A stretch of 64,000 nt of DNA from Leucoraja erinacea (GCF_028641065.1 NC_073382.1:23560001-23624000); one strand, 5' to 3'; positions 17,628-56,830 are shown, counted from the first letter of the stretch. The notes: generated by a model from the sequence alone, not told the origin. Program-made: numbers and translations.

Positions 17628-17895
17628 GTGTATGAAGGAACTGCGGATGCTGGTTTAAACCAAAGATAGACACAAAATGCTGGAGTAACTCAGCAGGCCA
17701 GGTAGCACCACTGGAGAGAAGGAATGGATGACGTTTCGGGTCGACACCCTTCTTCAGACTCTTTTCGGATCAAGACCCTTCCTCAGACTCAGACTCTGTA
17801 GTCTGAGGAAGGTCTCGACCTGAAATGTCACCCATTCCTTCTCCCTAGAGATGTTGCCTGTCCCGTTGAGTTACTCCAGTATTTTGTGTCTATCT
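17628..17895. mobile_element. PLE fold-back unit with hammerhead motifs on both strands
   Basis: Inverted arms; intact minus-strand core at 17730-17757; 15-bp TSD atagttactattaat (left copy split by the MITE). Confidence 0.85.
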
Positions 17896-18359
17896 ATAGT
17901 TACTATTAATTTGCAATCAGAATTCAGTGTTTAGAATTCAGAAATCCAATCTTTAACCCAGATTCTTATAGTTTATTATGAGATTTGCCAGAGGAAAATT
18001 AAGAAGGGAGACAGCAATATGCTTTACTGACAGGGTTAAGAGACAAGGGCTGAGAGGAGGCTTGGGTGAGGCATCGACTTTGGCTTCAAGATCATGCAGG
18101 CTGAATTAGCTACCTCTGTTCTTTTCAATGGCTGGAGCAGAGGTGTCATAATTGGCTTGTGCTCCTGGCCTCAAAGTGGGAACATTCACAGAGTTTCTAT
18201 TTTTAACTGCTACCTTTGCGAGTTTGTTGAAGCATGTACATTTTGGTTCACTCTGGTACACCACCGCTGACTCCCTTCATGCTACACAGAGGAGCCACTT
18301 CACTGAGATGTTGAACGATACTTAACACAGAGAAAATTGTACCTCGGCAGGTTTGGGGA

Positions 18360-18925
18360 TGAAACATAGAAAATAAGTGCAGGAGTAGGCTATTCAGCCT
18401 TTCGAGCCAGCACCGCCATTCAATTTGATCGGCTGATCATCCAAAATCAGTACCGTGTTACTGCTTTCTCCCCACACTCCAGAATCCGTTAGCCCTATAT
18501 CTAACTCTCCCTTGAATACATCTAGTGAATTAAGGGCCTGCCCCACTGTACGAGGTAATTCTCCCGAGTGTCCCCTGATTTGGAGAATTACGGTAATAGA
18601 CGCTCGTAGGAACTCGGGGCTCTCGTGGACATTTTTCACCATGTTGAAAAATCTTCACGAGCTTACCGTGTTTCCCGAGTACCTGCCGTTAGCGTTACGA
18701 GCCACTAAGAGACTTCCCGAGCTCCGACGTACCCGCTACGTACATTCTACGTATTTACCACGAGTTTGAAATTTTTTTAAATCTCTTGAATTACCTCGTA
18801 CAGTGGGACAGGTCCTTCAGCCTCCACTGCCTTCCGTGCCAAAGAATTTCACAGATTCACAACTGTCTGGGTGAAAAAGTTTTTCCTCATCTCAGTCCTA
18901 GATGGCCTACCCCTTATTCTTAAGG
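18360..18925 (-). mobile_element. CR1 3' fragment interrupted by a MITE
   Basis: RIRGRPSRTEMRKNFFTQTVVNL on the minus strand; tail gaaacatagaaaata on plus. Confidence 0.85.
18533..18816. mobile_element. Harbinger-type MITE
   Basis: AGGGCCTGCCCCACTGTACGAGGTAATT...AATTACCTCGTACAGTGGGACAGGTCCT; flanks TTA/TCA. Confidence 0.85.
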
Positions 18926-19414
18926 TTAATAGGTTTGAGTGCGTTTTAGGAGTGATGATAATTTCTACGTGGTTAAGAACTAATAATATTGATTTAGCAA
19001 GTGCAGTTTCCCAGAATTTTTTTGGAAAAATCACACATTATTATGGCAGCAAAATCCTATTGTGTTAACCATAACAAGTAGCCAGTAATAGGCTACTCAT
19101 CTCCTTATGCCTTTTTAGCCATTTAGTAAGATTATGTTTGGTTTTTCACTTCAGTACCACTTCCTGGCATTGCACCATATCTCTTAGATATCAAGATCTA
19201 TCTACTCTGGATAGATAGATCTGTATTCTGTGTTGAATAGTCATAGTCATGCAGCATTGAAACAGGCCTCCAAGCCCACTGAGTGTGTGTGTCCATCAAG
19301 CTCTTATTTACACAAATCCTGGTACTTAAAAAAATGTCCCCATATTCCTCTACACCACCCCCCGTCCCTCCCCCCATTCACCTATCTCTCTCTTACTTAC
19401 AAACTAGGGTCACT

Positions 19415-20108
19415 TTATAGAGTATAGAAGCTGGGATGTAATGTTAAAATTGTACAAGGCATTGGTGAGACCAAATCTGGAGTATGGTGTACAATTTTGG
19501 TCGCCCAATTATAGGAAGGATGTCAACAAAATAGAGAGAGTACAGAGGAGATTTACTAGAATGTTGCCTGGGTTTCAGCAACTAAGTTACAGAGATAGGT
19601 TGAATAAGTTAGGTCTTTATTCTCTGGAGCGCAGAAGGTTAAGGGGGGACTTGTTAGAGGTCTTTAAAATGACGAGAGGGATAGACAGAGTTGATGTGGA
19701 CAAGCTTTTCCCTTTGAGAATAGGGAAGATTCAAACAAGAGGACATGACTTCAGAATTAAGGGACAGAAGTTTAGGGGTAATATGAGGGGGAACTTCGAA
19801 TGCATTTCGTTGTCTCTGTACTGTACACTGACAATGACAATTAAATTGAATCTGAATCTGAATCTGAATTTACTCAGAGAGTGGTAGCGGTGTGGAATGA
19901 GCTTCCAGTGGAAGTGGTGGAGGCAGGTTCATTAGTATAATTTAAAAATAAATTGGATAGGCATATGGATGAGAAGGGAATGGAGGGTTATGGTATGAGT
20001 GCAGGCAGGTGGGACTAAGGGGAAAAAAAGTTGTTCGGCACGGACTTGTAGGGCCGAGATGGCCTGTTTCCGTGCTGCAATTGTTATATGGTTATATGGT
20101 TATATGGT
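19415..20108 (+). mobile_element. CR1 3' fragment with a ~75-bp Rex-type tail inserted at ~19797-19869
   Basis: ORF 19441-19887 (RPNLEYGVQFWSP); the insert matches the 3' end at 53709-53767 with (tgaatc)n; CR1 tail (tatatggt)n. Confidence 0.9.
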
Positions 20109-20132
20109 TTACAGTGGTGAATTTATCTACTA

Positions 20133-20605
20133 CAGGTCCACCACCGGTTTTCTGGCAACTGGTGGTCCGCACCACCTTAAGAGATTACATCATTACAAAA
20201 GCAGAATTAATAAACCCCTTTCCCCCTGAAAATATGGCACCGGGTGATGTGGCCAATCTTGACCTCATTTGTACTTCCGCGTCGTTCGGCCACGGCTCTA
20301 GAACTCCAGCCTGGCTGGAGACTGCAGATCCGTTCCCGACTTCCACAGCCGATCGGTGGGTCAAATTAGCTCCCTGCAACTGGGGCTCTGGAACTCTTGC
20401 CCAGTCAGAGCCAGCAGATCTGTTCACTTGGCCAACTTCCAAGGCAGACTTTGCGGGCCAATGTCTCGGCTCCTTGACTGCCTAGATGGACCATTCCAGT
20501 ACCATTGGACTCCTTTTGGAGGTCATGACCTCTGTTGGTCTGGCGAAATGGATAATCCAAAAAGGCTTTGGAAACAAGGATGCCGTAAAATTGGTGGTGG
20601 ACCTG
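20133..20605. mobile_element. Tc1/mariner (pogo/Tigger-like) MITE
   Basis: 25-bp imperfect TIR caggtccaccaccggttttctggca / tgccgtaaaattggtggtggacctg; TA on the left only. Confidence 0.65.
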
Positions 20606-20834
20606 CGTTTATCTTTGGGATGCGGGAGGATACAAGAGTACCCTGAGCAACGCACACATTCATGCAGAGAGCCTGCAAATACCACACAGGCAGCACCTGA
20701 AGTCAGGATTGAACATAGGTCTCTAGAGCCGTGAGTTTGCAGCTCCGCCAGTTGTACTCATCCTGCTGTGTGATGCCTCATTGTTGCTACTGAATCATCA
20801 AATCACATTCAGCAACTTTATCCCATATGATTTA

Positions 20835-21246
20835 CATCATGGGAGTTCCCCCCGCCACGGGTACCATGTAATCCCGAGCTACCTGCTCCATGGTCGGATA
20901 GTTGGCGACTAAACCGTCTCCCCCACCTGGTTTGCCAGGTGAAGAGGGGGCTGTAGACCCCCAGCAGGTCCAAAAACAAGACCTGTCAAAGGGCAGATGA
21001 GCTTCTAGCGAGCCAATGGCCATCCCCACTTCAGTAGAATTTGCGATCTCTGTCGTACATAGCATTGTAAGGAATGATGAAAAGCACACACACCAAAATC
21101 CTATACTTCCAGTGGAGGAAGTCTGCAAGAACTGGAGGACAGAGATGTGTGATGCGTCCATCACCGTTCCCGTCAGAAGCCAGCACCACTGCGTCACTAA
21201 TGTTTTCAACGATGATGAATGAATTAATGAATGAATGAATGAATGA
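20835..21246 (+). mobile_element. Probable non-autonomous non-LTR retroelement with (TGAA)n tail
   Basis: GC-rich structured 5' part, microsatellite tail 21213-21246, weak TSD atgattta/atgactta; no clear pol III boxes. Confidence 0.5.
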
Positions 21247-21319
21247 CTTAGAGACTGGAGAGGTTGTATGTACTCTCTTAAAGCAATGTGAAGCAATTCA
21301 ATATCATGCTTTTCATTAG

Positions 21320-21620
21320 AGGAGAAGTTGTTTCCACTAGTGGGAAAGTCTAGGACTAGAAATGACAGCCTCAGAATAAAAGGACACCTTTAGAAAGAAG
21401 GTGAGGAGAGTCAGAGAGTGGTGAATCTGTGGAATCCATTGCAACTGAAGGCAGTGGAGGCCAAGTCAATGGATATTTTTAAGGTGAAGATTGACAGACT
21501 CTTCATTAATACGGGTGTCAGGGTTTACGGGGAGAATGAGATTGAGAAGGAAAGATAGATCAGCTATGATTGAATGGCGGAGACATGATGGGCCTAATTC
21601 TATAACATTAATTTATGAAC
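21320..21620 (+). mobile_element. Old CR1 3' fragment
   Basis: cagagagtggtgaatctgtggaat...gatcagctatgattgaatggcgg. Confidence 0.8.
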
Positions 21621-21766
21621 TTAAACGATAACCTGGTTCCTATAGCAGAGAGGTCTATAACCAGATGTTGCAGAATTAAGACAATTATCTAAAAGGGTGA
21701 GAGATGCAAAGCTCTTAGTTTCATTTGCGCTCAGTAAAGTCATGGTCCGGAATGCAGCACGTGTAA

Positions 21767-22075
21767 AGCCCCTGGACCACTTTCCCGAGTTACTCACGAA
21801 TTGTCCCGAGTTTTCCCCTTGATTCAAACTCGGAGAATGTCCGTAGTGAGTCTGTAGGAGTCCGTAGCGAGTCCGTAGATATTTCGTAGCGACTCGTAAT
21901 GCCAGCCGTAGGTACTCGGGGCATCAGGTAAGTCGGGATGTTTTTTCAGCACGTTGAAAAATGTCTCCAAGTAAAAAAAACAGCCCCGAGCACCTACGGC
22001 TGGCATCTCCGAGCTTGAATCAAGGGGAAAACGCGGGAGAATTTGTGAGTAACTCGGGAAAGTAGGACAGGGGCT
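21767..22075. mobile_element. Harbinger-type MITE
   Basis: AGCCCCTGGACCACTTTCCCGAGTTACTCAC...GTGAGTAACTCGGGAAAGTAGGACAGGGGCT; flanks TAA/TTA; ~60-bp inverted arms. Confidence 0.85.
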
Positions 22076-22651
22076 TTAGGAAAACTGGAAGTACATTTAC
22101 AGCTAACTTTTAATTGGGAACTGGATGAATAGCTTGCAGGGATAATCATTGTTTATGGCTGAGGACTCCCAGCATGTATAATACAAATACAAGGGATTTG
22201 GTCACTAGATGGTACTCTCTATGTGTTGGCACAACACAAAGGTCCAAATGGTCTCCTTCTATGCTGTGCCATTAGGATAGGACAAGGGTGAGAAAAATAA
22301 TGAAATGTTAAAAAATGATTTTAAAAACCGATTCCTTCTCTCCAGAGATGCTGCCTGTCCCGCTGAGTTACTCCAGCTTTTGTGTCAATTTTTGGTTTAA
22401 ACCAGCATCTGCAGTTCCATCCTAGACATGTGTGTCTTTGTGCTTTTTTTGTTATGACTGTATGGCAAACCAAATTCCTCGTAAGTTTTGCAAAACATAC
22501 TTGGCTAATAAATTATGATTATGATTAGATTATGACATGAATGGTAAATCAAATTTCACTGTACCTTAAATGGTACACGTGACAACAAAGGACCATCGAA
22601 CCATTTAGTACATCGCATGTTGTGTAGCCGCAAAAACAAATTCTTCACTCC

Positions 22652-22820
22652 AAGATTCAAGATTCAAGATTCAATTTAATTGTCATTTGGACCCCTTGAG
22701 GTCCAAACGAAATGCCGTTTCTGCAGCCATACATTACAAACAAATAGACCCAAGACACAACATAATTTACATAAACATCCATCACATCGCTGTGATGGAA
22801 GGCCAAAACAACTTATCTCT
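22652..22820 (-). mobile_element. LINE-derived 3' end, same family as 33360-34168
   Basis: (caagatt)n tail, aattgtcat, stem-loop tttggacc/ggtccaaa, shared ctgtgatggaaggc. Confidence 0.7.
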
Positions 22821-23311
22821 CCTTTATATACAGGGTTATATACAAGCCCCATTTAATGTAAAAATAAGGTACATACCTTTAATTGTTTGCTTTATAAAAC
22901 CCTGGGGCTGCGAGAGGTTGCGGAGTGAGAGAGTGATTTTTAAACTACTATAAATATTATACAAGGCCATAAAAACTAATAATACCTTTTGCGACGGGGT
23001 CTTTCAGCGATTTTCCGTTAATGATTTACTAGGCTGAACATTTTCGATTGGAACAGCCTAGTAAAAATCGCGTTTTAAACCCGCCCCCTCTAAACAGCGC
23101 CAAAATCACACACGCGGGGTAGGGCAGATGCTCAGCCACGATTCAGGTAGGTTTTGTAACATACCTAAACACAGGCCACAGTTTTGTGCTTTATGGGAGT
23201 GATTAACATAAATTCCAACTGGATATGCCAGAGGTAATATTTGCTTGGAAGTGGACAAGCCATTAGCGTGTGAAGAATGCGAGTAGAGGATGGTGAGTTT
23301 ATATTTCCTTC

Positions 23312-23512
23312 AGGGCCTGTCCCATTTGGGCGTCATTTGCGCATCACGCAGATGGCACATAAAGATTTTGTACATCCCAAAATCCTGGGGCGCCGCGTGC
23401 GACCGCGCGTCACTGCCTACATCACCACACACCATGCGCGCACGTCGTGCGTCATGACGCGTAAATGATCGTGTACATTACGCGTAAATGACGCCCAAGT
23501 GGGACAGGCCGT
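23312..23512. mobile_element. Harbinger-type MITE, CpG-rich
   Basis: AGGGCCTGTCCCATTTGGGCGTCATTT...AAATGACGCCCAAGTGGGACAGGCCGT. Confidence 0.85.
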
Positions 23513-25282
23513 TTACAACATAAAATTAAACTATTTGGGCCATTAAGTCTATTTTGGTTCCCAGAGAAATCCCATCAATCCTATGTTCCCACTATTTTGT
23601 CCCTGTAACTTACTAGAGTTATAGGGGTCAAGGAAAGAGTCCTCACATCACGGCTCTGTTTCCACAAATCTTTCCACCACTACGCACAAGAAGCACAAGA
23701 AGCGCAAGACACCATTGTATGCAGATGCGGAGAAGTGTGTTTAGCTCTGGCTGAACAATGTCTTAGCGTGAAGTGGACTCGATAAGAAGACTAGAATTAC
23801 AGAATACAGCAGAGATATGACTCTTGGTCCCACCGTGTGCATGCTAACCTTTTTGTCCATCGATATTGGACAATATACATCACCTCTACCAGAGGCAGTT
23901 TATGTTAGCCAATGACCCAACTGAGCTGGAAATCAAACGGTTCTGTTTAATCAAAGTTGGTCAAAGAGATGGGTTCTAGTGCACATTAAAAGAGAAAGAA
24001 GCACCAAGAGGGAGATGTTGAGGGGAAAAAATCAAAAACCTAATGAGGGATTGATTAAAATAGAGATCCATAGGAGGAAAGAATTGGAAGAGCGCAGAAA
24101 TGCAGGATTTATAAAAGAATGCAGAAACTGAGAGGGACAAGGCTAAGCGTCCACTTGAAGGTATGGATGAGAATGTTAAAACCTGCAGCCTAAAACTCTA
24201 GGGAAGTCACATGGAGCATGTGCAGTGAACACATAGACAGTACCAGGTTGAGACTGAATCTCTGGAGCTTTGTGCTACCTACACTACCTGCAGGTACATG
24301 AACACCATCCCACCAAAGAGTTTGTGAACAGAAGAACAGTGTGGAAGAACAAAGAGGAAAGAGACAGCCATTGCATTTTGTGGTTGCTATTCTGCAGCCA
24401 GCAGCTACGATACAGGAACCTGTGGCATCTGTCCAATATACTTGCCACATGGACCCAGTGGTGCTCTTTAGCCATCGGCATCCACATTAACAAATTCACT
24501 CATGTTCACTACAACCGGGTAATGCTATTTACTAGTTTCAACCTTTACAGTCCCTGCAGATACTAATTTTAGAAGAATTGCATGACGTGATCTGTGTATT
24601 TCTCTCTAAACCGTTCACTCACCATGATCCCACTTGCCAATTTCAAGACATCAGCTTGCCTGAGTCTCCTTTTCAAAGAATGGAGCTACAGTTTAAAACA
24701 GTACTCCCAAAATACAAAATGTCTCTCTTCTGTTCCTTGTATATAATGAAGCACAACAAAAATTATGTTAACTGTGAATGCTGGTCATCCTTTGCGACTG
24801 TGGATGGAAACAATTAACATGCAAAACATCAATCGAGGAGCGCATTTAAAGGATGATATCATGAAAGAAATATGTATCACATCACCGAACAGGCTGCCTT
24901 CTGCAACAGCAACTCGGAGTGGTGTACTTGCAACCGTCTAAGTGAGAATCTTTCATTTGTTATCTTGATTTATTTTCTGCACTGCGTGACGTTCAGTGCA
25001 GCTATAACCTTCTCTGGAGTGATTTTCAAGGCATCTGCTGCCGAATGATTTAAGGCGGCTTTCGCAGGGACTGTGGAGAGAGGGAGGGGGTGAAAGAAAT
25101 GAGAAATACTCCTCAATGGTTGCTTTTTATTCAACGTGAGATTTGCCAAAATCAGCAGCCATAAAATGCTACCGCAGAGCTCAGATTTGCTGAAATACAG
25201 TAGATGACACTTCAATCGCCCTGCAGCTTGATCTTCCTGCGCCCACAGCTGCTAAATCTTTAAACCAGAGCTGTTGATAAGC

Positions 25283-30757: not shown

Positions 30758-31194
30758 TATACCTGCCTCTCGTCCCCCCCCCCCGCCCACCTCACCCAAC
30801 CCATAGTTGGATTTAAATCCAAAGTTGTGTTGCGCCATACTATCCTTGTAAGAATTCAGTGAAGGGTGTCCATGTCTTGAAAAATTGATCTGGGTTTTCT
30901 GCCAAGACAAGCCTAATATTTTCCAAATGTAGTGTCTCGGGCATGTTTGTAATCCACATCTTAACAGTAGGGACTGATGTGTGTTTCCAAAATTTAAGTA
31001 TTCATTTTTTCGCCGTTATCAGGCCATAATTAAGGAAATGTCTTTGAAATAATGTTAGCTCAGAACAGGCTTGTGACGTACCTAGCGATTTATAATGTCC
31101 ATGTACCCTGCAGACCTGTATAACTTTGGTAGTTGTATGGAGCTGGAGGAAACGCATAAAAATTCATAAGGTAACTGTGCAAACTCCATACTTA

Positions 31195-31659
31195 AGGGCC
31201 TGTCCCACGAGCATGCGACATGCATGCGGCAAGCGCGACCAAACTGGAAGCGGGGGCTGCGCGGGAGCCACGTGGAGGTCGAGTGATCCCCGTACAGGCC
31301 CGGTCCCACCAGCATGCGCCTGCATGTGGCGAGCGCGAACAAACCAGAAGCGGGGGCCGCGCGGAGGTCGAGCGAGTGACGTGAAGTTCGAGCAAAGTCC
31401 GCTGGAAGTTCGCACGTGATGTACGGCGTCAAGACGCTACGTACGGCGTCGAGGTGGTTGCGGGCCGGCAGGCCGTTGCCGCGCGGAATTTTTGAACGGT
31501 CAGCTTTTCGGAGCCCCGCGCAATGTCGGGACCAGCTCCGCACAACTCCATACAGCTCCGACGATCGAAGTAGGACCAGCCCCGCTAGGCTGTACGGCTC
31601 AAGCGACCACGTTAGGTCACGCTTGCTGCATGGAGTCGCATGCTCATGGGACAGGCCCT
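31195..31659. mobile_element. Harbinger-type MITE with duplicated left end
   Basis: TTA TSD (31192-31194, 31660-31662); TIR AGGGCCTGTCCCA; second left-end copy from ~31276. Confidence 0.9.
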
Positions 31660-32534
31660 TTACTTATTTAAATTATTTACTACGATCAGCCTCAAAATAT
31701 TTATTAAAATCTTTAAGAATCTGGTATTAGGCTATTCTTCAATCACTGTGATCTTTCATTCTAAATCTAAAAAAGGTCCTATCATCAAATTACACCAGAT
31801 TTGAATTATGGAAATGACATGCACATGTAAAATTGGAGGCAAATATTATATTCTGCAGAACAGAAGAAACCAAATTTCAAAAGCATGGTGCTGTTGATCA
31901 GTTGCTTTACGACAGCCCAATATTGTGAAAGATTATAAATGCCAGCATTCCTTTCATCAATCTTTTTGTTCTTTTCTTGAAAAACAAATTTATTTCACGA
32001 TGTTGATATTTGATCCAGTTTACGTTTAATCTGCTTTTTGTATATAATCGGTGGCTATTGTTTATCTGAATGGTTACCTCCTCTCCCAATGTTGCTGACA
32101 TATATTCAACTTTAGTTCAACTGGCAAACCAGACAATCTGGTACATTGCACAATCTGGTACATTGCACATTTATACATCAGTGAAGACTGTAGGTATCTA
32201 ACCTGCAAGTATCACCGTAACCCCAACTCTCAAAACTGGATTTGCATGCCTTCTTGTTAAGACTATTTCTCAGTGAAAATAACCGTATATAGTGTGAGGA
32301 AGATACAGCTAAATACTGATTTTAGGAGGGATAACAACATTCATGTGTGGTGAAGGGGGTCACTATAACATTTAAATTACAACGTTGTATCTAATAATCA
32401 TTATGCTGAGAATTACATACCTATAATTAAAAATATATAGGATTATTCAATAGTGATGGTGAAATGGAAAATCTTCCGAGTTAAAATGAGATCATGTCTT
32501 AATAGTTTTACTAGTTTTCATGCCTTTCACCAAC

Positions 32535-33359: not shown

Positions 33360-34168
33360 TCAAAGTCAAAGTCAAAGTAGCCTTTATTGTCATTCAGACC
33401 TTTCGGTCTGAACGAAATTTTGTTGCCTTGCAGTCATACATATAATAAAAATGCCAAAAACACACAATAAACACAAATTTAACATCCACGACAGTGAGTT
33501 CACCAAACACCTCCTCACTGTGATGGAAGGCAAAAATCTTAAAGTCCTTGTCTTTTCCCTCCTTGTTCTCCCTCTGCTCCAAGGCGACCTGTGAGCTCCC
33601 GACGTTGTCGTCCACCGTCCACCTCCGAGGTTGGATCGCCGCTGCCGCCGGAATGCCACAGCTCCGATGCCGGGTCGCCGCTGCCGCCGGAACGCCACAG
33701 CTCCGATGCCGGGTTGCCGCTGCCGCCGGAACACCACAGCTCCGATGTCATGTTGCCGCTGCTGCCGGAACACCACAGCTCCATTGTCATGTTGCCGCTG
33801 CTGCCGGAACGCCACAGCTCCGATGTCGTGTCGCCGCTGCCGCTGGAATGCCACAGCTCCGTTGTTGCCGCTGAAACACCACAGCTCCGATGTTGCGGCA
33901 GGAACGCTGCCCCAGCTCCGAGGCCGCCAGCTCCGCCATTAGGCCTCGGCGCAGACGGAGACAGACACGGGGGATACGACAAGAGAAGTCGCATCCCCCA
34001 AAAGAAGAGACCAAAAACACGTTTCTCCCCCTCACCCATACACAACATAATAAAATAAAACCAAAAATTAACTAAAACAGGACAAAAGAACGAAAAAAAC
34101 AAACGTACTGCAAGCGAGCCACAGCTGCTAAGGCAGCACCGCCATCTTAACGCCATCTTCTCCTTCCC
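33360..34168 (-). mobile_element. Non-autonomous LINE derivative (5' UTR, minisatellite, 3' UTR)
   Basis: Minus 5' end with tandem aagatggcg; 3' stem-loop, atgacaataaa and (ctttga)n tail; 10-bp TSD tcatgccttc (33350-33359, 34169-34178). Confidence 0.75.
33638..33920. repeat. GC-rich 39-bp minisatellite, 5 full units plus shorter units
   Basis: Unit gccgctgccgccggaacgccacagctccgatgccgggtc; explains the 13-aa repeats in the overlapping ORFs. Confidence 0.95.
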
Positions 34169-36397: not shown

Positions 36398-36589
36398 GTG
36401 TAGGAAGGAACAGCAGGTGCTGGTTTACACCAAGGACAGACACAAAATGCTGGAATAAATCAGCGGGTCACGCAGCATCTCTGGAAGAAGAGTCTGAAGA
36501 AGGGTCTCGCCCCGAAACGTCACTTATTCCTTTTCTCCAGAGATGCTGCCTGATCCGTTGAGTTACTCCAGCATTTTGTGCCTATCTTC
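36398..36589. mobile_element. PLE fold-back unit with hammerhead core at 36494-36521
   Basis: Inverted arms; CTGAAGA A GGGTCTCGCCCC GAAA CG TC; imperfect TSD aacacaaatgaaatgt / aacacaataaaatgt. Confidence 0.85.
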
Positions 36590-38521: not shown

Positions 38522-39047
38522 CTTTCATTTGAGTCCGCCCATCCTCCAGCATTGGGAGTACGATGGTCGAATTCCTCTGCGACCTCATGGCTGTGTATAC
38601 CACAGGAACAGATTGTACAACCACTGGAATGCGGTGCAGTTTGTTGGACGGAAAATTCATTGCATTTGAAGGTGGCATCGGGTGGATTATGTGCAAGTAC
38701 TGTTGGCCCCCGACACCTGGCGAAGATGTCACAACGGAGCCCGGCGCTAATACTGTAGACATGCCTGTCGATGAAGTCACTGAGGTTATCACAGTTGGGG
38801 ATGAAGTCAATCGAGGAGCACAAGAGGATATTGGAGGGATTGAGGTTATTGCCACTGAGCTGGGAGAGGAACGTGACGATGATACAGATGTTGGTGATGT
38901 CCGGGCTTTGTTAATGGACAAGTCCACTGGCTCAGTTTGTGTTTGATATTGATCAGTGGATAGTAAGACCTCTGGAGGCCCAGCTTTCACATTGTTAAGC
39001 AAAATAGGTACAGCTTCCATATCTGAAAAGTTAGGGGCTTGCGGAGA
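38522..39047 (-). CDS. KLF12: Internal coding exon of a Kruppel-like factor 12 (KLF3/8/12 group) gene: N-terminal repression domain with PVDLS CtBP-binding motif
   Basis: Translation SPQAPNFSDMEAVPILLNNVK...QTQTEPVDLSINKARTSPT...GVGGQQYLHIIHP...HRIPVVVQSVPVVYTA...LEDGRTQMK matches vertebrate KLF12 as I recall it. Acceptor ttttaacag ends at 39048 (phase 0); donor G|gtaagt at 38522/38521 (phase 1); 526 bp. No other exons or zinc fingers recognised in the window. Confidence 0.9.
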
Positions 39048-39802: not shown

Positions 39803-42799
39803 CATTGCTCATTGCTTACCTTCGATCTGGACCCATTTAATAAACTCATTAACAACAGGGTTTTCCACTGGATGATTAGGATTATCCATAGCTGAACACA
39901 TTTAATTAAATACTCCCATCACCAGGGGGTCCATTATCTAATCTGTACTAACAAAATGTATCAAGGGCGTTACTCATTTTAGTAACTGTTTGATAAGCTG
40001 GGGCAGTTGGTGGCATTTCACTATAGAATACCAAAACAAAAAACACACTTGTTCAAATGCAGATATGCACGCAAAGGCTTTTATGAGATTGTTTGCATGT
40101 ACTTTTGCTATTTAGTATGTTGGTTTCTGTTGTTAACTTAAAACAAACTTTTAAAACTATTCAGTGAGATGTATCCTAGCACATCCCTTGCCAGTTGGTG
40201 TGTTGTGGGTGAAAGCATTGTAAATTGAAACAGCAAGAAATTCCCGAGACCCCTTTTTACTTCTACATGTTATCATCTACCAAAGCTCCTGGCCACTCTT
40301 TAGCAATCTCTTCTTGGAAGTTGGCACCCTATCCAACCACACAATTCATCCTTGGTTACAAAAGGATACAAAGTTCTGGAGTAACTCGACCGGTCAGGCA
40401 GCATTAGTTTAATTATTGGGTGGTGTACGGTAAATACTTAAGTAAATGAAATTATAGCAAGTTTACGAACAGCGATATGCTATAGGTAATTTTAGAACGT
40501 GGATGTTTCTGACTTTGAGATTTCGGCTAACGAACAGTTGACTGGAGCAGGATCCTAGCATAACACAAGGACTGCCAACATCACAGAGACACCGCGAGTC
40601 ACAATAAATCAGTGAATGGAAAATCACAAGGATATTCTTAATTAGGGCAATCCACCCCAAAAAGCAAGATGACATGGGTGAATATTTTGGAGGGATTATA
40701 TTTGTTGAGCCTATAACCAAGGACATGAATGAAAGTGGGGGGGGGGGGGGGGGAACCCTGCAGGGTTTAAAGGGGAAGAATAGGTATGAAAATTTCAGGG
40801 CAGTGGCGACACAGAAAAATAATATTCAAGAGAGAATCAAAAGTGCTGAACTGACATCAACAATTTAGCAAGATTCTTGGATGTAGAACATCCTGAGAAA
40901 ATGGCAGCTTTATGTTAATCACATTATAATGGTCATAATGCCAGATGATCTCAGTGATAGCACTCTTATCTCCAATATAGAAGAAGGTGGGTTAAAGTCT
41001 CATTTCAGACTCTAGTAAACCAAAAATGAAGTTGATTTCCGGCACAGCATTGCACTATGAGAGGTGCAAGAGTAGGCCATTCGGCTCATCGAGCCTGCAC
41101 TGCCATTCAATATGCTCATGGCTGATCATCTAAAACCTGTACACCATTCCTGCTTTCCCCCCATATCCCTCGATTCCTTTAGCCCCAAGAGCTAAATCTG
41201 ACTCTCTCTTGAAGGTGAGAAATTAAAGTGTAGCCTCCAATGGCCTATAAATGCATGTCACTCTTGCGAAATGTGTGCTACGTGATACTACGTCAATGGA
41301 TATCAGGACAAAGAAGGTTACTGCTAATTTTCATGTAACTGTGTGGTTTTGCCGTTTCTCTCATTTCGCTCATTTTAACAGACACTATATTTTGAATATA
41401 CTTAAATTGTTAGAAATCAATTTCAACGTCCCAAGATTGCAAATGTACTACACTAATGCTGTACTTACATTTTAGGAAGTTAGTTTTGCTGCTAACAACA
41501 ATATCCACGTGACTTCAGATGGCAAGAGTGAAATCAGCCACAGTTCGACCTCTTATCAGGAATGGCAGAAATAGTAAAACCAAACATGAAAATCAGCAGT
41601 AATCTATTTATCAGGTCAGTGCTAACACTGTTTGGAAAGAAAAGCTTGAAAAACTATGAGAGTTTGGTATTAATCTCAGGCACATAATAACAGGTATATT
41701 ATGTTTTGAGATTTGCACAATGTATCTTATGGATATATATACACAATGCTCTGCTTTAAAAGCCTTAAATGGCAATGTGATATCCATATAAACATACACA
41801 GACATATAAAGATGTGTCCATCTATCTAAACATATATAAAACTATTAAGAGCCTGTAAAGTGTCAGCTATTCTCTTACATGGATGAAGTAATACTGGTGG
41901 CTTACAGCTGAACCCAAGATCCACACTCAGTCATTTACTAATCATCCTTACCTCCAACAACAGTATTGATCTGCCTATTAATTTTAATAAAGCAAAGCAA
42001 CAAGGTATTTCATTAAAGGCGTAATTAAAAAAATGGCAACAGAGGGAAGGACATACAGGGGGGAAACTAAAAGTCCAGTTTCATGTAGCATTTTAAAGGA
42101 AGAAAGAGGCTGACGGCTTGGAGAAGAATTACCAAAGCCTAGTAGCTTGGCAGTCAATAGCACTGTCCCAGTGGTGGAGTGATTACATTATGGGGGATGA
42201 TTATGAGGTCTGAATTTGAATTGCACCGATACATTAGTGCTGTGGAGTTGCTGGAGAACGGGATAGGCAAGATTAACAATGGATCTGAGAATAAAGGGGA
42301 TCCAATACTTGAACCATTTACCATCACAAACCTCATACTCAAGAAGATTTTTTTTTTACCTGACGTAGTGAATCTTTTAGCCTCTCTAATTAGGTGCGAT
42401 GTCAATTATATTGAAGTTTGAGAAGGATACAGGAGGAAAATTAGTAATAAAACTGCAGCCATATTGGTGTTAGCTGACAAATGTACAGGATAAATGCACT
42501 GAAAAGGTTGATTAAAACTTCATAAAGATCTAGTACTTACATAAAAATAGACACCGGAATAACCGCAATCTACTTTTGTTATATAAATGCTATTAAGGAA
42601 TAATTTGCCATTCCTAAAATTGTACTGATTTCCTTAGGCTGATGTTAATACAATATTGAACGATATGAAGGAGGATCCTGACCCGAAACGACACCTATTC
42701 ATGTTCTCCTGGGATGCTGCCTGACCTGCTGAGTTACTCCAGTGCTGTGTGTCTTATTTTGTAAACCAGCATCTGTAGTTCCTTGTTGCTACATTGAAC

Positions 42800-45336: not shown

Positions 45337-45829
45337 TTAACTTAGTCTGAAGAAAGGTCTCGACCCAAAACATTACCCATTCTTTCTATCCAAAGATGCT
45401 GCCTCATTTTGTGTCTATCTTCGGTGTACACCAGCATCTGCAGTTCCTTACTACACATTTAGATCCTAAGATCACCTAAATTCACACCAGAATTATAAAC
45501 CCTGGTCTCAGCACAGCAATAAGATCTCTTTCACGATCGAAGATAATGAGATACACACACTTTGCAAAAAAAAAAGTTTTGTAATTTCAATGTGAAAAAT
45601 TGATCGAGTTGTTCACTAATACCATATCAAGCCACTAACTCAGGTTGCCAAGTCAATTGCAGCAAGGTAATAGTAAGCGGAGCCGTGTACGACTCATTGT
45701 ATTTCATTCACTAAAAGTGGCCCTTGAGCAATGCTAATAAAATGTCCTATTGAACAGAATTAAAACCACAAACGAGTCACAACATTTTCACACTTACAAG
45801 ATAATTAACAGTGATGTATGACATTAAAT

Positions 45830-47922: not shown

Positions 47923-48275
47923 GACACAAGGAACTGTAGATGCTGGTTTACAAACAAAGCCACAAGATTCTGGAATAACTCAGCATGTCAGACGTCATCT
48001 CTGGAAAACTTTTGATATGTGACGTTTCAGGCGGTGAATCTTCAGACTGATTATGGTGGGAGGCGGAAGAAACCTGGAAGAGAGATGGGGTAGGACATAG
48101 TCTGGCGAATGACAGGTGAATACAGGTGAGGGAATTTCTTGACAGTTGGACAAAGGCCAGATATGAAAAGAGAAAAGGTGTGAAATAATGATTGAAGAAC
48201 AAATTGTGAAGCCAGAGGAAGGAATATAGGTGGAAATGGAGGGGTAAGGGAAGAAATTAGTGCATGTCCAGGTGG
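47923..48275 (-). mobile_element. Older PLE 3' end
   Basis: aaggaactgtagatgctgg...gacgtttc...tcttcagact followed by purine-rich PLE 3' region. Confidence 0.7.
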
Positions 48276-48363
48276 GAGACAGGGAAGATGGGAAAAAAAG
48301 TCTAATAAACCAATTTGAATCTGAACGAAATGAGACCACTGCACCTGTCAATATTAGAAGGAA

Positions 48364-48652
48364 GATAGGCACAAAAAGCTGGAGTTACACAACGGGACAG
48401 GCAGCATCTCTGGAGAGAAGGAATGGGTGATGTTTCAGGTCAAGACCATTCTTCAGTCTGATGTTACTAACCGGGACAGGCAGCATCTCTGGAGAGAAGG
48501 AATGGGTGGTGTTTCTTCAGTCTGAAGAAAGGTCTTGACCCGAAATGTCACCCATTCCTTCTCTCCAGAGATGCTGCTTGTCCCGCTGAGTTACTCCAGC
48601 TTCTTGTGTCTATCTTCGGTTTAACACCAGCATCTGCAGTTCATTCCTAGAG
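48364..48652. mobile_element. PLE fold-back unit with internal partial duplication
   Basis: Two antisense arms then a full sense arm; 12-bp TSD tattagaaggaa (48352-48363, 48653-48664). Confidence 0.85.
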
Positions 48653-49985: not shown

Positions 49986-50219
49986 TCATTCTATTATCAG
50001 GCAGAATGTGTGCGAAAATAAATAGAATCACTGTTTCAGGTTGGAGGCCATTCGGCAGAACGATAAAGTAGATCAAAGATGCTTGTAAAGCAGTAGGGAG
50101 AGGAGTTAATGTCACACATGCACGATTCAGCCAGACCAAAAAATCAAATGAGAGTGGTAGAATTTACTGGACTCCAAAGGGCTGCAACATGCCCAGATAG
50201 AGGATGAGGTGATGATAAA

Positions 50220-50556: not shown

Positions 50557-50671
50557 ATCCTTAATCTTATGTTGCAGCTAGTTGCAAAAGTGCAGGGGAG
50601 CACAGACTGATAGATCAGAGTGGGAGTGGGATGGGGAATGAAAAATACAGGCAACAGAAAGCAGAGAATCA

Positions 50672-51062
50672 CCCCAAAACGTCACCCATTCTTTCTATCC
50701 AGAGATGCTGCCTGTGCCGCTGAGGTACTCCAGCATTTTGTGTCTACCTTTGGTGAAAAGCATCTGCAGTTCCTCCTTACACATTTAATCTATACTGTTT
50801 TTGGTTTCTCCAATGTAGAGGAGACCCGTGCAGAACTCGTTTATTTAATTGACTTCACCACTAACTTCCACCCTGCATTCAAATTCACCTGGACTATCTC
50901 CGACACCTCTCTCCTCTTCATTGACCCGTCTCCATCACAGGGGACAGACTATCAACTGGCGCCTACTACAAATCTAGAGACTCCCACAATTATCTGGACT
51001 ACATTCCTAATATATGTCTATCTTTGATGTGAACCAGCATCTGCAGTTCCTCGTTTCCTACA
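50672..51062 (+). mobile_element. PLE remnant: terminal repeat, RT C-terminal fragment (~50826-51005), terminal tail
   Basis: ELVYLIDFTTNFHPAFKFTWTISDTSLLFID resembles the PLE RT motif (FHPxLKFT...FLD), flanked by pLTR pieces. Confidence 0.75.
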
Positions 51063-51979
51063 CAAAGAAGGAATGGCAGGTTTCTTGCACCTAATTCAGG
51101 TGCGGTTTAGACCACCCCAAATCATTTCATGGCCGTCTTTATTGCAACTAGCTTTTTAATTCCAGATTGGTTTACTTACTTCAATTTAAATTCCCTATCT
51201 TCTGGGGTGGGATTAGAACTCATCCCTCCAAATCAATAAGCCAAGCCTTCGCATGTCGGTCCTGAATATTAACCACTTTGCAAGCATGTGTATTAAGCAG
51301 GTAATTTAGCTTGTCTTTTGTCTGACATTATCCTTGATCGTATTGTAATGAACTGATTCCACGTGTCACAGTGCTTTTCCTTTAAGCAAAAGTGAGATTC
51401 CATTGTGACGATGGGGGAAGGGGATAAGCAAACAAAGCTGTAACAGCCTGATGGTACATCTGGGACAAATAATGAGGCATACATCTCTTTCACTAGCCCA
51501 GGATTAACGATCAAAGCAAGCATTGGGTTGGACTGCCAAGCGTGTAGCTCACAGTTGCCACTGGCAGCAGTGGGCAACAGATGGGACATCATGGAGAAAG
51601 GAATGACAATTAAAGACTGTGGAGAATTGACACATTCAGAGCACGCTACATGTAATCTGGCCTACCCTGCCCTGAGGACACATGGGAGGAAATGCTTGCA
51701 GTGGAAGAGAATTCTCAAAAGATCCAGATGTCCAGATTAGACTTTTCCAGGAATGGGCAAATTCCCCAGAGGAGGCAAACCCGCATGAAAATGGAGCATG
51801 AGAATTAGAAAAGATGCTGCATGTTTTTGCTCTCAAAAACCTACCAGCTGCTCTGCCTCTCACAAGGTGGGCTCAGGAAGCGAGCTCCCGCCCAGTCAGC
51901 AGGGGGATACATTTAAGGGTGTAAATAGGACTGTCCTTGTAATTGGATAGGAGGGCAGGACTGAGTGGTGCATTGGAGA

Positions 51980-52455
51980 TGTAGGAAGGAACTGCAGATG
52001 CTGGTTTAAATCGAAGATAGACACAAAAGGCTGGAGTAACTCAGCGGGACAGGCAGCATCTCTGGAGAGAGGGAATGGGTGATGTTTCAGGACGAGACCC
52101 ATCTTCTAGTTAGGGATAAGGGAAACGAGAGATATAGACCATGATAAAGAACAATGGATATGCAAAAAGTAACGATGATAACAGAAACAGGCCATTGTTA
52201 GCTGTTTGTTGGGTGAAGAGGGAATGCCGGGGGGGATAGAGAGAGAGAGAGAGCGAGGGCGAATATCAGAGCCTACCTGAAGTTAGAGAAATCAATATTC
52301 ATACCACTGGGCTGTAAACTGCCCAAGCGAAATATGAGAAGCTGTTCATCCAATTTGCGTTTAGCCTCCCACTGACAATGGAGGAGACCTAGGACAGAAA
52401 GGTCTGTGTGGGAATGGGAAGGAGAATTAAAGTGTTTAGCAACTGGGAAATTGGA
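51980..52455 (-). mobile_element. PLE 3' part (GIY-YIG tail plus terminal repeat)
   Basis: Colinear with 10460-11010; minus strand encodes RKLDEQLLIFRLGSLQPSGMNIDF. Confidence 0.85.
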
Positions 52456-52670
52456 GGTACTATGGCACCAGCAATGCCCTTGAACATTCCTAAGGTTCCT
52501 AAGAGCCTTAGGAACATTAAGTTATTACAAAACATGAAGTATGGTACAAGGGATTGCGAATATAAAAGTGAAAATGTGGAGAGTGTGGATGGTGGGCATT
52601 TCAGTATTAATTCAGGCCATTTTTATTTTCTACTGCATGTTCTGGCACAGAGAATTGGTGTAGAGAAATG

Positions 52671-52995
52671 TGTATGGAGGAACTGCAGATGCTGGTTTAA
52701 AGCAAAAACAGACACACAATGCTGGAATAATGCAGTGGGACAGTCAGCATCTCAGGCAACTTCTGAAGGGTTTAAGAAGGAACTGCAGATGCTGGAAAAT
52801 CCAAGATAGAGAAAAGTGCTGGAGAAACTCAGCGGGTGCAGCAGCATCTATGGAGCAAAGGAAATAGGTAACGTTTTGGGCCAAAACCCTTCTTCAGACT
52901 TCTGAAGGGTCTCCACCCAAAACATCACCCATTCCTTCTTTCCAGAGATGTTGCCTGTCCAACTGAGTTACTCTAGCATTTTGTGTCCACCTTTG
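52671..52995. mobile_element. Composite PLE fold-back mixing two pLTR subfamilies
   Basis: Antisense arm of type A, antisense arm of type B (gctggaaaatc...), sense arm; flanking agagaaatg at 52662-52670 and 53000-53008. Confidence 0.75.
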
Positions 52996-53008
52996 ACACA
53001 GAGAAATG

Positions 53009-53767
53009 GCTGATGATTTGACCATCTGACAACAACCTGGCCCTTAACTCCAAGAAGGCCAAGGAGCTCATTGCAGACTTCAGAAAGTCTAGAGGCGGCA
53101 TGCACACCCCCACCCACATTAACGGGACGGAGGTGGAACGTGTTTCCAGCTTCAGGTTCCTGGGGGTCAAATCCGATGACCTCTCTTGGACCCACAACAC
53201 CTCAACTTTGGTCAAGAAGGCTCACCAGCATCTCTTCTTCCTGAGGAGACTAAAGAAGGTCCATCTGTCTCCTCAGATTCTGGTGAACTTCTACCGCTGT
53301 ACCATCGAGAGCATCCTTACCAACTGTATCACAGTATGGTATGGCAACTGCTCTGTCTTGGACCCACTGCAGAGGGTGGTGAAAATTGCCCAACACATCA
53401 CAGGTTCCTCGCTCCCCTCCATTGAGTCTGTCCAAAGCAAGCGTTGTCTGCGAAGGGCGCTCAGCATCGCCAAGGACTGCTCTCACCCCAACCACAGACT
53501 GTTTACCCTCCTACCATCCGGGAGGTGCTACAGGTCTCTCCTGCGGCTGTTACACTACTCAACACTGTACCTTGGTGATTGCCAATCACCCCCCCCCCCC
53601 GGACACTCCTTCCACCAGGAAAAAAATAATTGCACTACTACAACTATGCACGTAAATATATTTATTTATTGCTCATATTCTATGTCGCTCTTCTAGGGAG
53701 ATGCTAACTGCATTTCGTTGTCTCTGTACTGTACACTGCACAATGACAATGTTTGAATCTGAATCTG
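53009..53767 (+). mobile_element. Rex1/Babar LINE 3' part
   Basis: ORF 53100-53696 VERVSSFRFLGV...LFFLRRLKK...FYRCTIESILTNCITVWYGN; (tgaatc)n tail. Confidence 0.9.
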
Positions 53768-54287
53768 ATGTATGAGGTTAGCAATAAGAATAGTACAGGA
53801 AAGTGCCTGTTTGTCGTTTGGTCTTAAATCAAGCACTGTTTTTGATTTCCAAACTGGAACAGTGTTGTTCGCTGGCTGAGTCAAATTCTCCATGGCAACT
53901 ACATCACATTGCCATGATTGACAGAAACCATGCTGCCACATTCAACCTTCTGGGCAAAATCTTCTCTTCCACATTCCAAGCAGGAAGCTCAATGATTCCA
54001 TGATACTATATAACCACATGTACCTAGGTACCATGAAATTCCTTGTTTTGGGATACAATCTGGTAAAAGAAGAAGAAGAAGAAGAACCGAGGCAGCGCAC
54101 AAAGAGTTGCCACATTTCTGACGCCGACAAGGTTTCATTACGACCCAAAAATGCCAAATTCTGAGACCCCGTGGCTGTTTACAGTAGTGGACAATCTCAT
54201 GAAAAGACAGCGGTGAGATGGACTGATACCAGACTGCCCATCCATGCACTCAACTTTTCACTCACGCGGTTATTCATACTGGTGTAA

Positions 54288-55054
54288 AGGGCCTGTCCCA
54301 CTAACGCGACTTTTCAGCGACCGTCTTCGACCTTCAAGCTCGAGGGCACTCGCCTGAAAAACCTCGACCTGGGTTGACTGTCAGTGATGAAACCGTGAGC
54401 CAGATCGACCGTCAGCACTCACACGCAGACACACACAAACACATCGCAAAGGTGAGGGCAAGGGAAAGTGGGGGAGCACTATCTGAAATTCACACCCACG
54501 CTGAACAGGAAGGTAAAAGACAGCTGGCACAGTTATGGTATGTCCTTTAGCGAGCGCGGGGGGGCAGAAAAGGGGAGAGTGGAGGAGAGAAGGGGAGAGA
54601 ATGGGGGACAAGGGGGGGAGAAGGAGTGGAGACCATTTTAAGAAGCCAGACAACTTTTAATAAAGTTTAGCAGGCATTTAGCATTACCGGTCGGTTTACT
54701 TATCTTGTTTTTCTCAACAAGCTATTACCTTCGACTACCTTAGATTACCGTTGATTGCCTTTGATTACCTACGATAGCATTACGACCTACTACGACTTAC
54801 CTCAACTAAACCTATGAGTAAAAAAAATATTGATTTTTTTCCATGGCGACCTTATTTTAATCGTGGGCATTTTTCAGCTTGGTGAAAAAAACGCTGCGAT
54901 ATAACTGAGGCCTCGCGTATGCGGGGACTACTCTCGAGCATGAAGGAGATTTACAAAGATCTCCTAGGACCTCATGTCGACCATGCTGCGAGTATGAGTC
55001 GAGGGCAAACTCTTCTAAAGTCGCGAATTAGGTCCCCGCAGTGGGACAGGCCCT
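54288..55054. mobile_element. Harbinger-type non-autonomous element, 767 bp
   Basis: AGGGCCTGTCCCACT...AGTGGGACAGGCCCT; TAA on the left; ~10-bp internal repeats at 54724-54800. Confidence 0.85.
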
Positions 55055-55219
55055 CTACACTCTATTTAATTTCACTTTGTTTAGAAAGCAGTGTCAGGGA
55101 AATATCTATTAATAACCACGGAACTGTCACAATTCAGTCTTTTGCTTAACCATGCCTACAATCGACCTAGGACACTGGACTCTTAGTTCAAATTTAGTGC
55201 AAATTTAGGAAACTAAAAT

Positions 55220-56275
55220 CCTGTCCTATCCATGTACCTAAATGTATTTTAAACATTGCGATAGTTCCTGCCTGAACTACCTCCTCCAGCAGCTCTTTCC
55301 ATACACCCACCACCCCTTGTGTGAAAAAGTTACCACTCAGGTCCCTATTAAATCATTCTCCCCTCACCTTAATCCTACCTCCTCTCGTTCTCGATTTCCC
55401 TAACCTGGGCAAGAAACTCTGTGCATCTACCCAAACTAATATGGGAGTTAGATGTGGCCCTTGTGGCTAAGGGGATCAGGGGGTATGGAGAGAAGGCAGT
55501 TACAGGATACTGAGTTGGATGATCAGCCATGATAATATTGAATGGCGGTGCAGGCTCGAAGGGCCGAATGGCCTACTCCTGCACCTATTTTCTATGTTTC
55601 TATTCCTCTACATGATTACCACTCATCCTCCTGCGACTCTAGCAATAGAGTCGTAGTCTGCTCAACCTCTCCCTATAGCTCAGGTCCTCAAGTCCTGGCA
55701 ACATCCTCGTAAATCTTATGTGCACCCTTCCCAGCTTGACAACATCTTTCCTATAACATGGTGCCCAGAACTGAACATAATGCTCTAAATGTGGCCTCAC
55801 CAACCTCTTATATAACTGCAAAATGACCTCCCAACTTCTATGTTTAGGAAGGAACTGCAGATGTTAGTTTACACTGAAGATAGACACAAAATGCTGGAGT
55901 AACTCAACAGGTCTGGCAGCATCTCGGGAAAAAAGGAAAAGGTGATGTTTTGGATCAAGACCCTTCATCTCGACCCAAAATGTCACATATTCCTTTTCTC
56001 TAGAGATGTTGCCTGACCCACTGAATTACTCCAGCATTTTGTGTCTGTCTCCCAACTTCTATACTCAACACTCTGACTCAATACTGTGACCGATGAAGAG
56101 CAATGTACCAAAATAATTTTGACCACCCTATCCACCTGTAGTGCCACTTTCACCAAACTATATACCTGTCTGTCTAGATCCATTTGCTCAATAACACTCC
56201 CCAGAGACCTGCCATTCACTATGTCAGTCCTGCCCATGTTAGTTATCTGAAAATGCAACACCTCACATTTCACTG
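55220..56275 (-). mobile_element. CR1 fragment hosting a plus-strand CR1 tail (~55443-55602) and a PLE fold-back
   Basis: Minus ORFs 55639-55821 (RPHLEHYVQFWAP) and 55983-56312 (KCEVLHF). Confidence 0.85.
55842..56048. mobile_element. PLE fold-back unit
   Basis: 14-bp TSD ctcccaacttctat (55828-55841, 56049-56062) inside a CR1 host. Confidence 0.9.
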
Positions 56276-56626
56276 TCACACAGAGAATGTGCAAACTCCA
56301 CACAGACAGCACCCATGGTTAGGATCGAACCCAGGACTCTGGCGCTGTGAGGCCACGGCTCTACCAGCAGCGCCACTGTGCTGCAACACAGTGATGGTCA
56401 GTGCTGATTCAGTGAGCTGAAGGAGCCTGTTTCTGTGCTATATTCTCTCCGTGATTCCAAATTAAGGCCCCAAGCAAGCAACTTTGTCCATTATTACCTC
56501 CTTACCGAAATTAATTGGTGTTTCTTCTTGTAATTCATAATGTGTAGGGGGCAACAAAGATCAATTGTAATCAGTTCTCCCTGCAGGGACACTGTCAAAG
56601 AACAAGCAAAATATAAAAGATTAAAG

Positions 56627-56830
56627 GTAGACAAAAATGCTGGAGAAACTCAGCGGGTGAGGCAGCATCTTTGGAGCGAAGGAAATAGGCAACGTTTCGA
56701 GTCTGAAGAAGGGTTTCGGCCCGAAACGTTGCCAATTTCCTTCACTCCATAGATACTGCTTCACCCACTGAGTCTCTCCAGCATTTTTGTCTACCTTTGA
56801 TTTTCCAGCATCTGCAGTTCCTTATTAAAC
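56627..56830. mobile_element. PLE fold-back unit, second subfamily, hammerhead core at 56703-56730
   Basis: CTGAAGA A GGGT TTCG GCCC GAAA CG TT; TSD ataaaaga(t/g)taaag (56613-56626, 56831-56844). Confidence 0.9.

Follow-up and report, generated by a model that had tools for sequence, protein, structure and literature searches.

Insertions of Penelope-like elements (PLEs) take a published form, in which an inverted, truncated pseudo-long terminal repeat (pLTR) is accompanied by a tail of 30-40 bp at one end and by a short target-site duplication (TSD) of 8-10 bp (PMC3846280, PMC8557442, PMC8969392), and palindromes have been described at head-to-head PLE junctions (PMC3846280, PMC8557442). The PLE protein of a lizard cuts and extends both target strands in vitro; two internal start sites of reverse transcription bound the tail, a dimer is predicted, and the minimal RNA reaches open reading frame (ORF) position +172, with reverse transcription starting at +111-118 (PMC11167929). 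In its available text, this in vitro work stops before the joining of the products, and the transposition cycle of PLEs is still called unresolved (PMC8557442). Related arrangements of ribozymes are known: in Schistosoma mansoni, minimal hammerheads on opposite strands, 100-700 bp apart, have been read as probable truncated PLEs (PMC4209133), whereas retrozymes are head-to-tail, same-strand tandems with at least two ribozymes and a circular RNA (PMC7761336; bioRxiv 10.64898/2026.07.22.740005). In this study, we describe nine short fold-back units in a stretch of 64,000 nt from Leucoraja erinacea (NC_073382.1:23560001-23624000; the window, hereafter), each of which is one TSD-flanked single insertion of two PLE ends placed head to head. 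Most probably they represent the standard PLE insertion in its shortest form, rather than a new self-copying element, and we consider it probable that each was made on the spot, with the PLE protein cutting both target strands and one short cDNA being primed at each cut.

Anatomy of the units and of their parent element

A hidden Markov model (HMM) of the PLE repeat, built from ten natural copies and comprising 135 model positions, detected 40 repeat pieces in the window. Comparison of the window with itself gave about 30 occurrences of the repeat family together with eight local inverted pairs, all of them where the first-pass annotation had placed its eight inverted-pair units (13077, 14757, 17628, 36400, 48364, 52671, 55842 and 56627; units are named here by their first coordinate). 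On the model scale, the hammerhead core occupies 4-10, with position 1 three bases ahead of it; cleavage is predicted after position 31, the tail end corresponds to 131-135 and the short end to 96-103. The eight listed units and a damaged ninth one at 57215 all consist of paired ~135-nt hammerhead-bearing 3' ends of one PLE, and the HMM coordinates show a head-to-head arrangement, with both 3' ends outward, in 9/9 pairs (Table 1). The lengths of the units span 118-329 bp.

The two outer ends of a unit differ in a constant manner. One of them lies at model 132-135 (tail) and the other at 96-103 (short) in 8/8 listed units, a pattern with P <= 0.5^8 = 0.004 if the ends were independent; the extra stretch of ~35 nt that had been claimed for one arm only is visible in the model end points of every listed unit. 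Because lone copies mostly bear the tail (14 of the 17 aligned single arms, against three with the short end), the tail end behaves as the primary end. The units had also been described as made only of two inverted copies; the head-to-head pairs are indeed present, but there is in addition a nested arm in 52671, 91 bp of local DNA, matching a site 0.8 kb off, splitting the right-hand tail arm of 14757, and a third, partial arm in both 17628 and 48364. Two arms skip ribozyme stem II via microhomology, and the centre of 17628 holds a re-copied 28-nt piece of the ribozyme plus a 6-nt repeat.

Two longer copies in the window link the repeat to its parent element. Upstream of the repeat they contain about 270 nt (less in the copy at 51980) and then a frame matching the C-terminus of shark and skate proteins with reverse transcriptase (RT) and GIY-YIG domains. 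Protein P0122, which is of this parent type with RT and C-terminal GIY-YIG and whose C-terminus is the part found upstream of the repeat in both copies, scored 23.2 bits for GIY-YIG against a cut-off of 22.6, with RVT_1 below its cut-off, while the window's own PLE fragments taken alone matched no Pfam or NCBIfam family. By homology, the repeat is thus the terminus of an element predicted to code for an RT with a C-terminal GIY-YIG domain.

The same repeat carries, to judge from its sequence, a minimal type I hammerhead. A strict pattern finds intact cores in the window at 36494, in the short-end arm of 36400, which starts at model 1, and at 56703, with one loose match besides; at both sites the core, an extra base after A9, the G10.1-C11.1 pair and a palindromic stem III are the minimal type I features of PMC4209133. 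Stem II, of 4 bp, is paired in 80% of cells over 11 copies, with no compensatory change. An Rfam search returned no hammerhead family and only matches to miRNA hairpins, weak and all below the gathering score, and RNAalifold applied to 11 full arms gave a weak and uninformative structure. Outside the skate, a pattern scan of viral contigs gave 0 matches, and the sole pattern match among metagenome contigs (L001) was discarded as a chance match in unrelated sequence. An 8-bp complement between model 50-57 and the tail (e.g., 48568-48636) occurs in all subfamilies, with 90% of cells paired; this pairing, which shows no compensatory change and does not beat shuffles, could be part of a stem-loop at the RT start.

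Some further copies bear on the boundaries of the element. In three subfamilies the regions upstream of the repeat are unrelated (10590-10610, 47927-48345 and 60565-60730), and their likeness sets in at the base that precedes the ribozyme, which makes the 5' edge of the ribozyme a conserved functional boundary, whether a promoter, a splice acceptor or ribozyme stem I. A lone tail-bearing copy at 22327-22428 starts at model 32, exactly at the predicted cleavage site, and a copy at 9540 starts at ~31, cases that are too few to judge. At 50659-51063, a lone PLE end is followed by a broken PLE RT fragment (50833-51002) joined directly to a tail, forming a partial tandem with a large internal jump.

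The two end points of the arms are also found in bulk copies. With the lone copy 51940-52235 as reference and a likeness of 80%, contig sets of three organisms and one polyA RNA run of one of them gave at least 206,000-266,000 contig pieces per run and at least 18,721 RNA reads. In all four runs loose ends pile up at 51980 (tail end) and at 52013-52014 (short end), the latter pile being possibly sharpened by reference mismatches at 52011-52013. The RNA depth over the tail is ~0.4 of that over the core, and it drops from ~3,980 to ~190 (about 20-fold) across the 5' edge of the ribozyme, a fall that is an upper bound because the reference is missing 4 nt at this edge and the upstream regions of other subfamilies differ. 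The RNA reads come equally from both strands and show no pile-up of molecule starts or ends, as judged from 6% of a single polyA library of a related organism; a library of this kind would lose circular RNAs. Among 843 clipped contigs of run X1, the apparent commonest continuation is the pivot described below, with a per-column agreement of only 0.48. The top joints, in which tail ends are connected to short ends on opposite strands, might be taken for a new tail-to-tail structure; this was rejected, because the joints are compatible with contigs containing the unique DNA that separates adjacent repeats, and because none of the listed pairs overlaps on the reference. Fold-back junctions seem to be concealed by this same limit, which makes their absence uninformative.

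Target duplications and relationship between the arms

Six of the eight listed units (6/9 with 57215) have a TSD of 9-15 bp around the whole insert (Table 1), in agreement with what had been annotated, and the frequency is above chance: an exact duplication of at least 9 bp was reached in 0/400 random pairs and, with one mismatch allowed, 10 bp was reached in 7/400 and 12 bp in 1/400. No flanking duplication above chance was found for 13077, 14757 and 57215. The left TSD copy of 17628 has been interrupted by a later insertion resembling a miniature inverted-repeat transposable element (MITE).

Unit 55842 is located within an ORF of the retrotransposon CR1. Once the unit and one duplicate are taken out, the frame of the host is restored and matches, without gaps, two further CR1 ORF pieces present in the window, whereas the match is broken if both duplicates are kept or both are removed. 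The empty site, which the 14-bp duplication was expected to reveal, can therefore be reconstructed at the protein level; at the DNA level, blastn found no empty-site copy within the window for 55842 or for the 7 other units. The nested arm of 52671, which sits in the ribozyme and centre of that unit, is a later insertion into an older unit, because it belongs to the second subfamily and has its own exact TSD. Its position inside another repeat (52759-52910) may be a sign that PLEs home to their own pLTR. Single-arm insertions also occur on their own, as in a lone copy of a divergent subfamily at 42664-42791 with a flanking duplication of 7 bp exact (9 with one mismatch).

Whether the units were made at each site or amplified from a master was approached by comparing the arms. 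The comparison included eight units, namely seven with enough overlap plus 57215, 13077 being excluded since its arms do not overlap. Mates agree in 0.78 of the cells of 20 non-CpG variable columns, versus 0.65 when shuffled (P=0.003 over all 40,320 pairings; P=0.026 without the unit of the second subfamily), and their plain identity is 0.85 versus 0.80 (P=0.010). No diagnostic column separates tail arms from short arms, the identities between units being 0.78 (tail-tail), 0.82 (short-short) and 0.80 (tail-short), and in a tree of 74 columns with weak support the arms of the units are intermixed with lone copies in at least three groups. The same fold-back shape has been made by several subfamilies. 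Junctions, as had been noted in the first-pass annotation, and also lengths differ among most units; this has one exception, a pivot on a near-palindrome at positions -1 to 6, which recurs at 14838, 48452 and 48516 (three junctions in two units).

Since mates share a subfamily, no lineage of tail arms is seen, several subfamilies are involved and the 91 bp in 14757 are specific to that site, formation at each site is favoured over an amplifying MITE or retrozyme. The annotation had leaned the same way, towards repeated de novo formation during PLE reverse transcription, and the shared subfamily of mates, the mixed tree and the local DNA in 14757 support that preference. The 91-bp piece possibly stems from a jump onto nascent KLF12 RNA or nearby DNA, or from templated or later repair; the template of its cDNA would be the KLF12 sense strand.

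Table 1. Positions of the fold-back units and of other features in the window
Feature	Position	Strand	Description
Longer 5'-truncated PLE copy	10459..11013	-	broken GIY-YIG C-terminus, ~270-nt 3' region, ribozyme repeat, tail
Fold-back unit 1	13077..13192		tail-only arm (minus, model 98-133) and short-end arm (plus, 19-101); arms barely overlap; no clear TSD
Fold-back unit 2	14757..15059		short-end arm on the left, without ribozyme stem II; pivot junction 14838; no clear TSD
91-bp piece in unit 2	14916..15006	-	inverted copy of 14066-14156, 94% over 98 bp; short microhomologies at both ends
Unrelated MITE-like element	17395..17616		flanked by TTA; later insertion in left TSD copy of unit 3
Fold-back unit 3	17628..17895		tail arm (model 1-135), short-end arm; exact 11-bp TSD (17617/17900), exact 15 bp once the MITE-like element is taken out
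Fold-back unit 4	36400..36589		tail arm truncated at model ~41-43; imperfect TSD (36384/36590), 7 bp exact, ~15 bp with one indel and one mismatch (by eye)
KLF12b coding exon	38523..39047	-	sole one found in the window
Fold-back unit 5	48364..48652		short-end arm, extra partial arm, tail arm; pivots 48452 and 48516; exact 12-bp TSD (48352/48653)
Second longer PLE copy	51980..52503	-	GIY-YIG C-terminus, ribozyme repeat, tail
Fold-back unit 6	52671..52999		tail arm truncated at model 47, short-end arm; exact 9-bp TSD (52662/53000)
Nested single-arm PLE end in unit 6	52772..52897	-	other subfamily; own exact 13-bp TSD (52759-52771 / 52898-52910)
Fold-back unit 7	55842..56048		in CR1 ORF2 fragment (minus strand); exact 14-bp TSD (55828/56049)
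Fold-back unit 8	56627..56830		both arms from second subfamily, each the best match of the other at 92% likeness; ribozyme core at 56703 intact; duplication 56613/56831, 8 bp exact, 14 bp with one mismatch, part of which may be arm sequence
Fold-back unit 9	57215..57361		damaged, absent from the first-pass annotation; full tail arm and 24-nt inverted arm; no TSD

Mechanism and competing explanations

By analogy with the lizard protein (PMC11167929), the endonuclease would nick the two target strands 9-15 bp apart, the stagger giving rise to the TSD. One 3' end would then prime at the outer RT start and produce the tail end, whereas the second 3' end would use the inner start, located ~35 nt upstream, and produce the short end; both cDNAs would probably be copied from the same RNA, or from two RNAs of one dimer, and would accordingly yield arms of one subfamily. 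To judge from the window itself, each cDNA would be short because its synthesis ends by run-off or stalling when the 5' edge of the ribozyme is reached, 100-135 nt from the start, or comes to a halt before that. Joining of the two 3' ends would rely on microhomology, in many cases that of the near-palindrome found at this edge, and would at times be preceded by slips, by the skipping of stem II or by a jump to host sequence close by. Fill-in by repair would come last and leave the duplication.

Several features are consistent with this scheme. In a hand-curated set, the 5' ends of the arms are non-uniform, with 13/20 at model 1-9 (P about 2e-9 in a binomial test whose uniform null is crude, the arms not being independent). 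In 13077 the tail arm stops at 98 and the short arm begins at 101, which is the twin-priming geometry described for L1 (PMC11702581), while the overlapping arms of other units would need displacement on one RNA, or a second RNA. The recurrent pivot is expected without any amplifying master, because joining by microhomology predicts it. As the units end at the RT start and would be without the downstream RNA that the lizard protein needs, they are likely to be dead on arrival and likely cannot spread further. No function for the host is implied.

The idea that the arms of a unit arrived as two separate single-arm insertions, adjacent or one into the other, is hardly credible: nesting does happen, as the middle arm of 52671 shows, but one TSD encloses both arms in 6/8 units, no inner TSD flanks either outer arm, the CR1 frame returns when both arms leave with one duplicate, and the one-tail-one-short pattern is strict. 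We also hold it to be very unlikely that the units form a self-propagating, non-coding family of the MITE or retrozyme kind, the other branch left by the first-pass annotation, whose hairpin would be transcribed and re-inserted whole by the PLE protein. Such a family would suit the very high copy number of the repeat and the recurrence of the pivot, and non-autonomous PLE derivatives are known (PMC8557442; bioRxiv 10.64898/2026.07.22.740005). However, an arm-specific lineage is missing and several subfamilies give one shape, albeit in a small sample; most junctions and lengths differ; the ribozymes lie on opposite strands and not in tandem, with the few cores mentioned above still intact; and the duplicated sequences are unrelated and 9-15 bp long, unlike those of a cut-and-paste MITE, around ends that differ by ~35 nt instead of being symmetrical terminal inverted repeats. 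On these grounds the self-propagating branch is not supported.

A third possibility, likewise a form of de novo production, is that a single cDNA, or an antisense RNA, primes itself at the ribozyme palindrome and is copied back, with resolution by the endonuclease setting the short end. The recurring pivot and the shared subfamily of the arms would follow naturally, self-priming on an antisense template has been proposed for head-to-head repeats with palindromic junctions (PMC3846280), and the tail has been ascribed to endonuclease resolution (PMC8557442). We nevertheless judge this unlikely, since an arm made by copying back can contain only what is present in its template arm: the short arms of 13077, 36400 and 52671 reach model 19, 1 and ~3-9, where the corresponding tail arms stop at 98, 43 and 47, and 56627 shows the reverse asymmetry, therefore neither arm was always the template. 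Moreover, the short end fits the second RT start (PMC11167929). Two cDNAs primed at one target thus remain the preferred explanation, against which a number of points weigh. The recurrent pivot, present at three junctions and also in the X1 contigs, is equally expected from an amplifying hairpin; the similarity of mates could be due to later gene conversion or to subfamilies with different periods of activity, and the data used for choosing the diagnostic columns were also those tested; the local 91-bp piece could be a later repair; the TSD is missing in 3/9 units; only nine units are resolved, all from one window; the lizard results were obtained in vitro and with a different element; and self-priming is the explanation that PMC3846280 gives for such head-to-head palindromes.

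A more tentative extension of the two-cDNA scheme, which we regard as possible and still rather doubtful, is that the units preserve, in fossil form, the strong-stop cDNAs of PLEs, derived from a capped transcript that would start at the first base before the ribozyme core. A pLTR-ORF-pLTR transcript would have its only complete RT-loading site at its 5' end, and a dimer would therefore mostly make two run-off cDNAs of 100-135 nt; a cap-derived base would be added, a telomerase-fashion slip-back via that base could follow, and the pair would be joined through the near-palindrome. The basis for this proposal is the set of 13/20 ends at 1-9, an extra G and the ~20-fold fall in RNA depth at the edge. 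The promoter of the PLE of D. virilis has been located within the pLTR (PMC2377424), and a cap-derived G is known for the L1 RT (PMC11702581). In the window, the base immediately ahead of position 1 is never G in the four long copies, of which three have C and one has T, whereas it is G in four run-offs, three of them in 17628 and one in 14757. The site before the ribozyme core, in addition, resembles an initiator motif. In 17628 and 14757 the next bases fit a slip-back using the extra G, and two slip-backs need the G for microhomology. The 5' ends at the edge of the ribozyme, some with an untemplated G, are hints of run-off from a capped RNA start. Conversely, the G is ambiguous in two cases (36400 and 56627) and absent from three run-offs (the right arm of 17628, the nested arm at 52772 and the lone copy at 45344), and in three run-offs the base is masked by the pivot. 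The bulk consensus of loose ends has another base at this place; as the pivot and the long copies both yield that base, this is neutral. For this boundary, the 5' edge of the ribozyme, a 3' splice site like that of D. virilis (PMC4209133) was weighed as well; it is not favoured, since no upstream exon sequence shared by the arms is seen. If true, the strong-stop explanation would account for the need of PLEs for tandem copies to spread and for the hairpin litter in fish genomes.

Host gene and comparison with known systems

The host of the units is KLF12, as previously annotated, on the minus strand, and since the window has a single KLF12b exon, the rest of it is probably intron. Long hairpins had been anticipated in the KLF12 pre-mRNA; on that strand such folding is predicted for 7/9 units (z -9 to -23), the exceptions being 13077 and 57215. 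These hairpins would supply much intronic double-stranded RNA, and repeat pipelines could mistake them for MITEs or microRNA precursors. Besides, so many minimal inserts constitute a dataset for the spacing of the nicks (TSD length), the two RT starts, the stops of the cDNAs and their joining.

Other repeats are present in the window. Several MITE-like elements, which contain internal hairpins and resemble one another in their terminal inverted repeats, are found at 1700-2105, 17395-17616, 18532-18817, 21764-22078, 23299-23525, 31194-31660 and 54290-55055, and a GC-rich tandem array at 33390-34058 has long open frames on both strands.

The structure described here had largely been published already, with regard to the inverted truncated pLTR with tail and TSD, the palindromes at the junctions and the pairs of ribozymes on opposite strands. 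Our literature search, which extended to papers open without subscription and did not include Repbase or Dfam, met with no paper dedicated to fold-back PLE units of the ORF-less kind in cartilaginous fishes. The units share with the canonical insertion of endonuclease-bearing PLEs the head-to-head inverted copy, the tail at one end only, short TSDs (of 8-10 bp there and 9-15 bp here), the palindrome at the junction, the hammerhead and a parent with RT and C-terminal GIY-YIG. They differ in that both halves are at most 135 nt long, no ORF is left and the units are common (9 in 64 kb), whereas the available parts of the papers mostly draw ORF-bearing copies.

The dual hammerheads of Schistosoma mansoni are similar in being opposite-strand minimal type I pairs at this spacing; in the accessible text of that report, they receive a one-sentence mention, without TSDs, asymmetry of the tail or junctions. 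Metazoan non-LTR (long terminal repeat) retrozymes are likewise non-coding, 150-300 bp long, equipped with a type I hammerhead and PLE-derived. Unlike them, the skate units have an inverted arrangement and terminate where the RT of PLEs starts, and none of the nine units has two intact hammerhead cores on the same strand.

In the case of L1, twin priming also involves a second cDNA from the other target strand, an inverted product, an intact TSD and microhomology at the junction; the second priming site of L1 varies and its arms hardly overlap (PMC11702581), whereas in the skate units the second start keeps a constant place, ~35 nt inside the first, and there is usually an overlap of 50-100 nt between the arms. 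A further counterpart is the Poseidon PLE of Anolis carolinensis studied in vitro (PMC11167929), whose available text describes no joining of two cDNAs and no ORF-less fold-back products. As in our units, two RT starts bound the tail and both target strands are extended, and the starts of Poseidon lie ~110-120 nt past ribozyme stem II, compared to a tail end ~120-124 nt past stem II in the skate.

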